DNA from: Escherichia coli
Lineage (GTDB): Bacteria > Pseudomonadota > Gammaproteobacteria > Enterobacterales > Enterobacteriaceae
NCBI RefSeq assembly: GCF_016903815.1
Contig: NZ_CP069973.1
Reading direction: 5' to 3' (one strand)
DNA length: 64,000 bases
Position 1 is the stretch's first letter. Each line of letters opens with the position of its first letter. Made by a program: the position numbers. This document shows, piece after piece, positions 1-7,727 of the stretch.

Positions 1-3000
1 GCACATCTTTAATAACAGCTGCGAACTTATCGCCATCAAAATTAATATCAAGCAATCCAGCTAATGAGCCTTTACAGATGACATCAGCATCGATATATAA
101 CAGATTTTCAATAACTTCACTCAGATACTGGAACGCAACTAAACGGAAGAATGTTGCATAAGACCACTGTTTCAGGCTGGGGAAGATATCAATAAAGGCA
201 CTGGAGACTTTATAAATTCTTACTTCAACGTTAGCATTTTTGCTGGTAAAAGCGTTAACACGTTGTAGATAATCTTCATCAATGTAGTCGGTAAAGAGAT
301 GAAACTTAACCGCAAGGTCCGGGTTATGCATAATAACTGATTGCATAGATACTGCCGCACCAAATAAAAAGTTGCGGTCAATACCGTAAGCGATATTTAA
401 CACACGATCGGTGTTAGTAATTTTCCCAGAGACAGTGACTTCAGTAATACTCTCAGCTAATAAATCCATGTTGGTTCCGTTTTGACTGTGTGGTTTACGC
501 TTTGCCTTTTAATTTTTTAATAAATTTGCGTAGTTTGGTTCTGTAGATTACTGAATAGTAGCCATAATCTTTTATTTCGTTGGCAATACCCAGGTGACGT
601 TCCATGGCCAGACGATCACGAGCTTTACGCTCTGCCGTACAGCTTTTACCGGATAGGTCAATTATCCTGACACCATCTTTACTAACGATAAAGTTACCCC
701 GGTGTGGGTCGCCCGATAGCATATTTAAGGCATGCAATTTTTCCATTGAAGCCTTAATTTCTGCTTTAACATTTTCTGGAATAATCGGCATATCATTGAG
801 CTCTACGCCCTCGACATACTCGATAAGCATGATAAAAACACTGGCATAGTTGAAAAATTTACGCTCAGCCAGAAAATAAAAATCATTAGGAAAAGTAAGA
901 CCTGCACTTCTGACACGATCGGTTTCAACGATCAAATTCTGATAGTAGTCACCTTTTACAAAAGATTTAAAAAAACGTTCATTCCTTTTCGTTTTCGGAG
1001 CAAAGACTTTAAAAACATAGCGACCATATTTCGTATCAATCAACGATACTTTGGTATCATCAATATTACGTAATACTTTTACTGTTTTAAAATTATAGGC
1101 CAGTATTTCATCAAAGATTTCTTTATATTTATTATCATTATCTTTGTAATAAAATGAGAAGCCGCGATAACGTATACTTGTAATCATAAGAGTAATTTAT
1201 TTCTTAAGCTTGTACTTAATTAATGAAGTTATGCCTTTTATATACTCACCATGGGCAAACAGATGCTTATATTGTTTCTGCATTTCTGCAACAGTCCGCG
1301 CCTCTTTAAGAGGATATTTCTTCCAGGGAGATTGTTCACGCGCGATATTAAAGTATGATGCAGACGGATATCCAGCCCAGCTATGCCATGGTTTAGTTAT
1401 CCCTGTATAGTGAATCAACACTGTTTTATCGGTAATGGTTTGCTGATACTTTCGATGACTACGATCATAAAGTTCGTTTTTCAGGGTATAAATAGTATCA
1501 AAATCCTTCGCAAGGTAGATATTATTCATATTAAATGCGATATTCAACGCATCCTGATCTAAATATTTAAGAGAGCCATATTTAGTTTCCCCTCGTAAAA
1601 GTTTGAGTAAATACGGTGTCAAATTTGCTTCATGCCATTTTTTAAGATTGACATAGATAACGCCTGCATTGAAATAACGTCCATTCATTTCGGGAATGTT
1701 GAGGCGTTTTGCACATGCCGCCTGAGTACTATCATTGTCAGGAATGACCGCAGCAAACTCATCTTTAAATATAATTTCTGTGAGAGGTTTCAGGCTTCCT
1801 TTACAAACAACATCGGCATCCAGATACAGCAGTGTGGAAATACTTTCACTCAGATATTCAAAAGACAATACCCTGAAGTATGTCGCGTACGACCAAAACT
1901 GTGACGTCGGCAGATCAGCAAAGTATTTGGGGTCAATTAAATATACAATAATTGAGGTATTAAATTGTTTTGCTGTTTCATTAAATGACTTTAAATAATC
2001 ATCATCCACATAATCAGTGAAAACATGAAAGACAAAATTAATATCTGAATTATTAATCAAAACGGAAGAAATTGAAACGCCAGCACCATACAAAAAATTC
2101 TTATCGATACCGTAGGAAACATTTAGCTCTGGGGCGTTTTCTTTTTTATTATCTGCTAAATACGAAAACCGTTCTTTTATAAATTCATTCATTTAACTTT
2201 TCTCAATTTCATTTTATTATCTTTAAATAAAAATAATAAATATAATTCATTATCCCGTTAATTGGTTTATTTTGTTTAAAATTATGCTTGGCGCAATAAC
2301 GAGCATAGTTTGAGTTAACTGGCCGCATTAACGGTTCATTTTTCCAGGGCGATGCTTCTTTGGCTTTGATAAAAGGTTGCGCACTTGGATAACCGGCCCA
2401 GTAATGCCAGGGTTTTGTCGGGCCGACATAATGAATTAATACGGTTTCATCATTAATTGGACAAACAAATGATTTTTTTAATTCATAATTTAAACTAAAT
2501 TGCGTATTGTATTTAGCATCAATGAATTTAACTTTCCCTAACAGGATAAGATTAAGGATATCTTGATCCATATAGGTTAAACGGGAAACGATGGCTTTAT
2601 CAGCAAGCATCGACATCGCTTTAGCAGAAACGGACTCCTGCGCCCACGCTAGTGTATTAATTAACAGGACACCTGAATTAAAGTAACCCTTTTCAAGTTC
2701 ATTACACTGCAGACTTTGACCCCGTAACGACCACCAGTTAGCATCGCGTTCAGTAACAACAGCAGCAACGTTATTGGCAAGATCCATTGTTATCAGCGGC
2801 TTTAAGTTTCCCTGACAGGCGATATCAGCATCCAGGTAAAGGATCTTATCTTGTTGATCAATAAAGTAATCTGCAATTACAAAACGGAAATACATGGCAA
2901 TAGACCAATTTTTGGTCGTCGGTAATGCCTTAAGCCGTTCACAATTTACTAGATGGATCTGGATACAGGTACGATAGCTTTTCGCCAATTGGGCTAAACG

Positions 3001-6000: not shown

Positions 6001-7727
6001 TGAGGCTTTTGCTTTTTTATTTTTTATGCCGTAGAGCGCGTTAATCTCTGGATTTTCAGACAGGATCGGGATGGTGTCCTGATAAAGCAGCACATCGATT
6101 TTTGCGTCAGGGTAATTTTTTTTCAGCGAACTAATGACGGGAGTAGTTAATAACATATCCCCATGAAAACGCATCTTAATGAGCAAAATTCTTCGAAATG
6201 GCTTATCCACAAGTAACTCTTTTTGTTGAGATTATCCGATTAAGGTGAAGCAGAAAAAGCACGCTACCGCCCCAGGCTCAACAGCTACCTGAATACTGAT
6301 ACCGCACTGATATTGACGCGCTAGTGTATCACTTCTTTCGCGGCAATCCGACCCGAATGATTTTTAAGCACATTGTTGATTTTCAATAAAGAAATCAATC
6401 AAATAAAATCATTAGCAACCATATTCTTTCACTGTTGCTCTGCGATTCCTTCCTGCACGTACTGCAGAAATCAATGAATCGCATAAAAATACAAAAAAAG
6501 TATAGATGTTCAGCAAGAATTGGCGGGTAAATTGCTATTTAAGTCAAAAACGGGAAAAGTAATGGTAAAGCCACAGCTAAATACATAGAATCCCCAGCAC
6601 ATCCATAAGTCAGCTATTTACTATGCTCGAATTGCTTTACACCGCCCTTCTCTACCTTATTCAGCCGCTGATCTGGATACGGCTCTGGGTGCGCGGACGT
6701 AAGGCTCCGGCCTATCGAAAACGCTGGGGTGAACGTTACGGTTTTTACCGCCATCCGCTAAAACCAGGCGGCATTATGCTGCACTCCGTCTCCGTCGGTG
6801 AAACTCTGGCGGCAATCCCGTTGGTGCGCGCGCTGCGTCATCGTTATCCTGATTTACCGATTACCGTTACAACCATGACGCCAACCGGTTCGGAGCGCGT
6901 ACAATCGGCTTTCGGGAAGGATGTTCAGCACGTTTATCTGCCGTATGACCTGCCCGATGCACTTAATCGTTTCCTGAATAAAGTCGACCCTAAACTGGTG
7001 TTGATTATGGAAACCGAACTATGGCCTAACCTGATTGCGGCGCTACATAAACGTAAAATTCCGCTGGTGATCGCTAACGCGCGACTCTCTGCCCGCTCGG
7101 CCGCAGGTTACGCCAAACTGGGTAAATTCGTCCGCCGCTTGCTGCGTCGTATTACACTGATTGCTGCGCAAAATGAAGAAGATGGCGCGCGTTTTGTGGC
7201 GCTGGGCGCAAAAAATAATCAGGTGACCGTTACCGGTAGCCTGAAATTTGATATTTCTGTAACGCCGCAACTGGCTGCTAAAGCCGTGACGCTGCGCCGC
7301 CAGTGGGCACCACACCGCCCGGTATGGATTGCCACCAGCACTCACGAAGGCGAAGAGAGTGTGGTGATCGCCGCACATCAGGCATTGTTACAGCAATTCC
7401 CTAATTTATTGCTCATCCTGGTACCCCGTCATCCGGAACGCTTCCCGGATGCGATTAACCTTGTCCGCCAGGCTGGACTAAGCTATATCACACGCTCTTC
7501 AGGGGAAGTCCCTTCCACCAGCACGCAGGTTGTGGTTGGCGATACGATGGGCGAGCTGATGTTACTGTACGGCATTGCCGATCTCGCCTTTGTTGGCGGT
7601 TCACTGGTTGAACGTGGTGGGCATAATCCGCTGGAAGCTGCCGCACACGCTATTCCGGTATTGATGGGGCCGCATACTTTTAACTTTAAAGACATTTGCG
7701 CGCGGCTGGAACAGGCAAGCGGGCTGA

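Follow-up and report, generated by a model that had tools for sequence, protein, structure and literature searches.

The waaQ operon of Escherichia coli in the arrangement shared by R1- and R4-type cores, and its very probable R4 assignment by clonal linkage

The described systems closest to the locus reported here are the core loci of the R4 and R1 types. The R4 locus runs waaQ-G-P-O-T-Y-W-X-L, and its prototype is reportedly that of strain F2513, as Heinrichs et al. are said to have set out in 1998. The R1 locus, found for example in E. coli C and PCN033, reads waaQ-G-P-O-T-Y-W-V-L. The K-12 order, waaQ-G-P-S-B-O-J-Y-Z-U, was confirmed on the MG1655 annotation, which agrees with the statement in the initial annotation that K-12 has waaS and waaB after waaP and waaZ after waaY. 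The R3 locus, represented by O157:H7 Sakai, is arranged as waaQ-G-P-I-Y-J-D.

The window, which is the whole 64,000-nucleotide stretch of E. coli DNA that was analysed (contig NZ_CP069973.1), opens inside such a locus. Its positions 1-6271 are, with high confidence, the promoter-proximal 6.3 kb of a waaQ operon in the arrangement shared by R1 and R4, with clonal linkage pointing to an R4 source genome of an ST405-like clone.

Genes of the operon and its leader

Seven genes in the order waaQ-waaG-waaP-waaO-waaT-waaY-waaW lie on a single strand, the minus strand, just as in annotated R1 and R4 genomes, and all seven reading frames are intact as far as the window reaches. This bears out the initial annotation, which had read waaQ, waaG and waaP followed by two GT8 genes, waaY and a partial GT8 gene. 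The first gene of the operon, waaQ (rfaQ, 5152-6210), encodes the GT9 heptosyltransferase III (PF01075; NF007742, 713 bits with a cut-off of 467) and its product is 73% identical to K-12 WaaQ. It overlaps by 4 nt with waaG (4031-5155), the gene for the GT4 glucosyltransferase I (PF00534 and PF13439; 90% identity to K-12 WaaG), which in turn overlaps by 8 nt with waaP. The latter (rfaP, 3241-4038), whose start at ATG 4038 was taken from the RefSeq annotation of identical genomes, specifies the LPS core heptose I kinase (PF06293; NF011703, 479 bits, cut-off 170), with 84% identity to K-12 WaaP. The kinase acting on heptose II is encoded by waaY (rfaY, 495-1187), which matched PF06176 as well as NF007684 (400 bits, cut-off 248) and gives a protein 98.7% identical to that of R1 and 53% to that of K-12. 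RfaQ, RfaP and RfaY each exceed the curated equivalog cut-off of NCBIfam.

Three genes encode GT8 enzymes. The product of waaO (2209-3225), an alpha-1,3-glucosyltransferase (NF011718, 610 bits, cut-off 461), shares 99.4% identity with R1 WaaO, 50% with K-12 WaaO and 54% with the R3 counterpart. The alpha-1,2-galactosyltransferase WaaT (gene at 1197-2192) has exactly the sequence of UniRef Q9ZIS6; it is 100% identical to the protein of an R1 genome (L006) and 43% to K-12 WaaJ, and among solved structures the closest are GT8 enzymes, LgtC being one of them (E = 2e-15). The third GT8 gene had been described as cut by the window edge, and this is waaW, of which codons 1-156 out of 342 fall in the window (5' part, 2-469); its frame opens with ATG 469-467 and runs without a stop to the left edge, beyond which the rest lies. 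This part of a second alpha-1,2-galactosyltransferase matches PF01501 (E = 1e-32), carries its DXD motif in LYIDADVICKG, and is 100% identical at the N-terminus to WaaW of R4 genomes and 96.8% to R1 WaaW. Pfam found PF01501 in all three GT8 proteins and the GT8 C-terminal domain PF08437 in both complete ones, and DXD-type motifs appear in the translations as LDADI, LDADV and IDADV. No homologues of waaS, waaB or waaZ were found in window 1-6271, so the reported lack of waaS and waaB stands. The divergent neighbour, outside the operon, is an open reading frame at 6623-7900 on the plus strand, annotated in the identical genome of strain 7/2 as waaA (Kdo transferase).

Upstream of waaQ, the leader holds the ops element, the loading signal for the elongation factor RfaH. 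The initial annotation had placed it there, and the 12-mer GGCGGTAGCGTG is indeed present as one exact copy at 6260-6271 on the minus strand, 49 nt upstream of the waaQ start. It forms the 3' end of a JUMPstart element at 6260-6298 on the same strand (Rfam RF01707, full length 1-38, 55.2 bits against a gathering score of 35, E = 6e-10), and this match contains GGCGGTAG with the 12-mer exact. The finding of ops inside JUMPstart is far beyond chance. An ops-like site with 11 of 12 bases at 11338-11349, within coaBC, was dismissed as a chance match. When the leader was aligned with that of MG1655, where rirA is annotated, the core around ops proved nearly identical, and a RirA counterpart is predicted at 6244-6316 on the minus strand. 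In K-12, RirA is a 73-nt small RNA out of the waaQ 5' UTR that includes ops (PMC6358824). No site in the leader exceeded the shuffle expectation in a simple sigma-70 scan and, therefore, no promoter is claimed.

From these parts, the working of the operon can be sketched by analogy with the K-12 literature. Transcription would begin upstream of 6316 and proceed leftward, RNA polymerase would reach ops within the JUMPstart of the leader, and RfaH would load there and sustain elongation along the long operon. We infer what each enzyme does from its near-identity to characterised proteins, following the cited reviews. In the inner core, WaaP would phosphorylate Hep I, WaaQ would add Hep III and WaaY would phosphorylate Hep II. 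In the outer core, Glc I would be added to Hep II by WaaG, Glc II to Glc I by WaaO, Gal I to Glc II by WaaT and Gal II to Gal I by WaaW. The step that decides between R1 and R4 would be encoded left of the window, alongside the matching ligase WaaL, with a β-Glc branch expected from WaaV in R1 and a β-Gal branch from WaaX in R4. The sources conflict on the WaaX linkage, which is given as β1,4 (PMC13293308, UniRef) or β1,3 (PMC3526765).

Sequence held in common by R1 and R4

Of 5,426 complete E. coli genomes, 2,526 carry the waaT-waaY-waaW module, at a DNA identity of 98.3-100%, and WaaO, WaaT, WaaY and WaaW are 96.8-100% identical to their R1/R4 counterparts. With junction-specific queries, 1,828 genomes were recognized as R1 and 687 as R4, making R1 2.7 times commoner. 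A comparison of ten typed loci gave 183 variable sites in window 1-5700, not one of which tells the two types apart, and no base in the window does so. Overall identity was tried as a discriminator and rejected, as R1 and R4 genomes interleave over 98.3-100%. The waaW 5' haplotype was likewise considered as an R4 marker, and R4 appears to account for most of the 277 genomes with ≥99% identity; it is not an absolute marker because five R1 genomes (PCN033, SCU-102, 19KM1776, 7CC and VCSW7), at 99.4-99.6%, carry it or one very close to it. The R1 strain PCN033 is base-for-base identical to the window over 1-2348, and the R4 call is therefore made by linkage only. Over 1-6950, PCN033 has 29 mismatches, 28 of them to the right of 3930.

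The two types start to diverge 460 bp left of position 1, and the published typing primers have no sites in the window because these are located further left. The initial annotation, which could not distinguish the core types from sequence alone, was right that the gene left of the window, waaV in R1 or waaX in R4, decides the type. Its proposed check, a BLASTP search with the three GT8 proteins, did not hold up, as it cannot split R1 from R4 because WaaT is identical in both and PCN033 matches window 1-2348. As a matter of typing method, the stretch from waaQ to waaW, GT8 protein BLAST included, is insufficient for this purpose; the two types are told apart only by waaV or waaX, by waaL, or by the last ~100 bp of waaW.

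Clonal linkage to R4 and the alternatives

Window 1-25000 recurs, perfect to the base, in at least 58 genomes. In all 11 window-identical genomes that were checked (identical where compared), waaW comes with a GT25 gene, waaX, and a gene for the R4-type O-antigen ligase, waaL. The GT25 protein is WP_001052917.1 (GT25 by Pfam) and corresponds to UniRef Q9ZIS2, named as a "Beta-1,4-galactosyltransferase"; in Z1002, the gene is annotated as frameshifted and has no protein accession. The ligase is WP_000453196.1 in ten of the 11 and the shortened WP_075827253.1 in strain 5283. Two near-identical genomes, one with a single mismatch (L002) and one with many more (L003), have the waaW, GT25 and ligase genes likewise. 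Furthermore, an IS1 junction private to the window and 56 kb away is found in only six genomes, five of which are among the 11 R4 ones. In-silico PCR with published typing primers (PMC13293308; nominally 380 bp for R4 and 842 bp for R1) gave the R4 product in all 11 (380 bp in ten, 379 bp in Z1002) and the R1 product in none. An association of R4 with ST405 and with phylogroup D has been reported. Clonal linkage places the source genome within the ST405-like clone and, with waaX and waaL themselves lying outside the window, it is almost certainly R4.

A source genome of the R1 type would instead carry waaV, a GT2 β-glucosyltransferase gene, and an R1-type waaL after waaW. Every gene visible in the window is common to both types, R1 is the more frequent, and PCN033 shows how far the identity of an R1 strain can extend. 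A chimeric query made of R1-specific DNA and window 1-5000, however, found no R1 genome among the 5,426 that matches this part perfectly, the best reaching 99.8%; PCN033 itself diverges to the right, and the 11 genomes checked, including five of the six with the private IS1 junction, are all R4. An R1 source is thus highly improbable. The probability of an R3- or K-12-type core is close to nil, as these are already refuted by gene order and identity of the predicted proteins. In R3, waaS, waaB and waaZ are missing as well and GT8 genes lie on both sides of waaY, and the initial annotation had held R1, R3 and R4 to be fitting; this stood for the arrangement shared by R1 and R4 but not for R3, as Sakai has a single GT8 gene between waaP and waaY and proteins of 38-54% identity. 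As for K-12, it has waaS, waaB and waaZ, and the identities of WaaO, WaaJ and WaaY are 43-53%. The outer core had been called a non-K-12 type, a view that best matches to K-12 WaaO and WaaJ together with waaZ at the left edge would have overturned; the call is upheld, with identities of only 50% and 43%, respectively, and with waaW at that edge.

It is also very unlikely that an R4-derived locus has become defective through a frameshift, deletion or IS in the 3' part of waaW, in waaX or in waaL, leaving a truncated core or no O-antigen ligation. Such lesions do occur among relatives: waaW of strain 7/2 is frameshifted by a 16-bp deletion, waaX is frameshifted in Z1002, the ligase annotation is shortened in strain 5283, the waaW-waaY-waaT stretch (window 1-2200) of strain 405 (NZ_CM132948.1) harbours an IS1, and in Ec-U14-1 some 777 bp are added inside window 1-6700. 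Part of these, however, may be assembly errors, and the frames in the window are all intact. Moreover, four of the five checked genomes with the private IS1 junction have intact, identical copies of waaW, waaX and waaL, the fifth, 5283, differing only by its shortened ligase annotation. Very unlikely, too, is the idea that the abrupt R1/R4 boundary in the last ~100 bp of waaW marks a site of repeated recombination, where close phylogroup-D backgrounds would exchange waaV-waaL for waaX-waaL cassettes or the reverse. Rightward of this boundary, ~2.8 kb are identical between PCN033 (R1) and the ST405-like clone (R4). If such swapping were real, a strain could switch its core type, and thereby its phage and antibody specificity, and leave no trace in the rest of the operon, and the source genome could in principle hold a recent swap.

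The R4 assignment by linkage is accordingly retained as almost certain. The locus, its enzymes and their control by RfaH and ops are already known, and nothing here is biologically new because all of this is textbook knowledge. The outer-core type determines the O-antigen ligase that can function, the phages and colicins that bind and the reactivity of anti-core antibodies, and the R4 typing of a multidrug-resistant ST405-like clone is therefore practically useful.

Comparison with known core loci

The R3 locus of Sakai resembles the window in lacking waaS, waaB and waaZ, and WaaP is 98.5% identical. It differs in having two GT8 genes, one of them before waaY, in the presence of waaD where the window has waaW, in waaL being on the other strand, and in the 38-54% identity of its proteins to those of the window. 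With K-12, the window shares orthologues of waaQ, waaG, waaP, waaO and waaY, the JUMPstart/ops leader with rirA, and the divergent waaA. In contrast to the window, K-12 has waaS, waaB, waaZ and waaU and two GT8 genes rather than three; its WaaO, WaaJ and WaaY are the distant relatives noted above, and its waaL is on the opposite strand in another operon. The R1 locus is as in the window from waaQ to waaW and differs beyond it by waaV (GT2) and by a ligase that is 36% identical to that of R4. With the R4 locus, whose waaX and waaL positions fall outside the window, the gene order is the same and no difference is seen across the visible part, and many genomes that agree with the window at every base go on into waaX and the R4-type waaL.

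The waaQ operon and its leader

Within positions 1-6271 of the window, the ORF listing gave seven closely spaced reading frames, all on the minus strand and all intact as far as they are visible. The operon opens with waaQ (5152-6210; NCBIfam RfaQ equivalog, Pfam GT9), waaG (4031-5155; Pfam GT4) and waaP (3241-4038; RfaP equivalog, Pfam Kdo/WaaP kinase family), followed by genes for GT8 proteins of 338 amino acids (waaO, 2209-3225) and 331 amino acids (waaT, 1197-2192), by waaY (495-1187; RfaY equivalog, Pfam WaaY) and by the 5' part of waaW, which starts with an ATG at 469-467 and is open for 156 codons to the left edge. 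The RfaQ, RfaP and RfaY models scored well over their cut-offs, PF01501 (GT8) was matched by three proteins, with the LPS-type GT8 C-terminal domain in both complete ones, and DXD motifs are present in all three. ORFs, NCBIfam and Pfam bore out, in every detail, the genes and order read in the initial annotation, waaQ-waaG-waaP, GT8, GT8, waaY and a partial GT8. The RefSeq product for 2209-3225, assigned via NCBIfam NF011718, is "waaO: lipopolysaccharide 3-alpha-galactosyltransferase"; the annotation of MG1655 has UDP-glucose:(glucosyl)LPS alpha-1,3-glucosyltransferase, as does one source name attached to the exact protein, and the automatic name probably specifies the wrong sugar for R1/R4 WaaO.

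The ops element that had been placed in the leader was found there as the 12-mer GGCGGTAGCGTG, in a single exact copy at 6260-6271 (minus strand) with waaQ 49 nt downstream. A full-length JUMPstart match at 6260-6298 (Rfam; 55.2 bits against a gathering score of 35; E = 6e-10) has this 12-mer as its 3' end, and 6244-6316 aligns to the K-12 rirA gene. An 11/12 ops-like match at 11338-11349 (plus strand), within the coaBC coding region, was set aside as consistent with chance, 0.3 being expected per window.

On established knowledge (PMC6358824; bioRxiv 10.1101/2022.09.06.506728; PMC3526765), RNA polymerase would pause at ops, RfaH would load and termination would be suppressed along the long operon. 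WaaG would add Glc I onto Hep II, while WaaP, WaaQ and WaaY would follow one another, the first phosphorylating Hep I, the second adding Hep III and the third phosphorylating Hep II. Glc II, Gal I and Gal II would be supplied by WaaO, WaaT and WaaW, the type-defining β-linked side branch would come next, from WaaX in R4 or WaaV in R1, and the O antigen would be ligated by WaaL. The sources are at odds on the WaaX linkage, which is β1,4 in PMC13293308 and in the UniRef name (Q9ZIS2) but β1,3 in PMC3526765.

The boundary between R1 and R4

In annotated relatives, what comes after waaW is either a GT25 gene together with one for an O-antigen ligase, or a GT2 gene together with one for a second ligase, which shares only 36% identity with the other. 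A 2025 typing paper (PMC13293308) assigns waaX, a β-1,4-galactosyltransferase gene, to R4 and waaV, a β-1,3-glucosyltransferase gene, to R1, and provides diagnostic primers for both types. In-silico PCR gave the R4 product on all GT25 loci (380 bp, but 379 bp in locus L009 and strain Z1002) and the R1 product, of 842/853 bp, on every GT2 locus. The GT25 protein matches Pfam GT25 and is sequence-identical to UniRef Q9ZIS2, "Beta-1,4-galactosyltransferase".

R1 and R4 are collinear and nearly identical up to 460 bp left of position 1, where they split abruptly, within the final ~100 bp of waaW. PCN033, an R1 strain, shows no difference from window 1-2348 (waaW 5' part, waaY and waaT) and only one up to position 3930; against the near-identical R4 clone it is identical from -460 to +2348 and drops leftward to about 40% identity, which on alignment reads as a sharp cassette-exchange junction. 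Among ten typed loci, none of the 183 variable sites in window 1-5700 separates the types, and the WaaT protein WP_001001720.1 is found in R1 and R4 genomes alike. Judged by its sequence, the part of the operon inside the window does not distinguish R1 from R4, and the BLASTP of the three GT8 proteins proposed earlier is uninformative on this point. The limit on typing from waaQ-waaW and the sharp R1/R4 boundary at the waaW 3' end, whose near-identical flanks occur in both types, are methodological points worth keeping.

Linkage of the window to R4 genomes

At least 58 genomes, several labelled "strain 405", match window 1-25000 without mismatch, and strain 7/2 does so over 1-56723. Relative to strain 7/2, the window carries an IS1 copy at 56724-57491 and an adjoining 5.3-kb deletion, and both junctions are common to only 6 of 5,426 complete genomes. 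The five of these six that were inspected all have intact waaW (WP_000364807.1), waaX (WP_001052917.1) and an R4-type ligase; with six further genomes identical to the window, R4 was found in 11 of 11, and two near-identical genomes are likewise R4. Independently of this linkage, ST405 and phylogroup D are associated with R4 in the literature. This linkage makes it very probable that the source genome is R4. That it is instead R1 is very unlikely, since R1-specific DNA joined to window 1-5000 found no perfect R1 genome (best 99.8%). An R4-derived locus with a damaged left end is only slightly less improbable; such lesions do occur in relatives.

In strain 7/2 (L001 7457-8469) waaW is frameshifted and 16 bp shorter, in Z1002 (L013 2541-3313) waaX is frameshifted, and in strain 5283 (L024 1974-3149) the ligase annotation is shortened. 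A strain 405 genome (NZ_CM132948.1) has an IS1 in the stretch matching window 1-2200 (waaW 5' part, waaY, waaT), and Ec-U14-1 (NZ_CM192137.1) has an extra ~777 bp in window 1-6700. These core-locus lesions in otherwise identical relatives may reflect either genuine rough variants or mistakes in assembly.

Elsewhere in the window, tRNA-Sec (selC; 41403-41493, plus strand; Rfam, 83.8 bits), the site of the LEE island in O157:H7 Sakai, is directly followed by a tyrosine integrase ORF (41797-42981). The island that comes after it, within 41797-51000, ends before yicL (51412-52335) and, by the annotation of an identical genome, holds a TPR protein, a LacI-type regulator, an MFS transporter, a GH31 hydrolase and IS1. 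The same source describes a sugar-utilisation cluster between yicH and yicI (30162-37105, minus strand), with a D-lyxose/D-mannose isomerase, a ROK kinase, two aldolases, fructose-type PTS IIA/IIB/IIC components and a BglG-family antiterminator. The 5.3 kb missing beside the IS1 at 56724-57491 holds, in strain 7/2, an IpaD/SipD-like needle-tip gene, the HilA-family regulator eilA and the 3' end of the inverse-autotransporter gene air/eaeX; the truncated air/EaeX adhesin remains as a long ORF (57487-63972, minus strand; 2,161 amino acids as listed), built for the most part from tandem repeats of ~291 bp with 84-88% mutual identity.

Comparison with known core types

In the annotation of MG1655 the order is waaQ-G-P-S-B-O-J-Y-Z-U, the leader contains rirA, and waaL lies on the opposite strand. 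Compared with it, the window locus has no waaS, waaB or waaZ, and its GT8 proteins and WaaY share no more than 43-53% identity with K-12 WaaO, WaaJ and WaaY. The absence of waaS and waaB and the non-K-12 core, as first proposed, are upheld by this gene content and identity, and the best matches are not K-12 WaaJ and WaaO. The candidate list of R1, R3 and R4 stood in part: the arrangement is that of R1 and R4, and R3 is ruled out by the O157:H7 Sakai locus, waaP-GT8-waaY-GT8-waaD, which has two GT8 genes in total, one before waaY, and whose proteins are 38-54% identical to their window counterparts.

The waaT-waaY-waaW part is present in 2,526 of the 5,426 complete genomes (98.3-100% identity), and the 6.7-kb stretch is 100% identical in many complete E. 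coli chromosomes. Chimeric queries specific to each junction counted 1,828 R1 against 687 R4 genomes. The locus belongs to a type already described in full and is nothing new, R1 or R4 being found in almost half of complete E. coli genomes.
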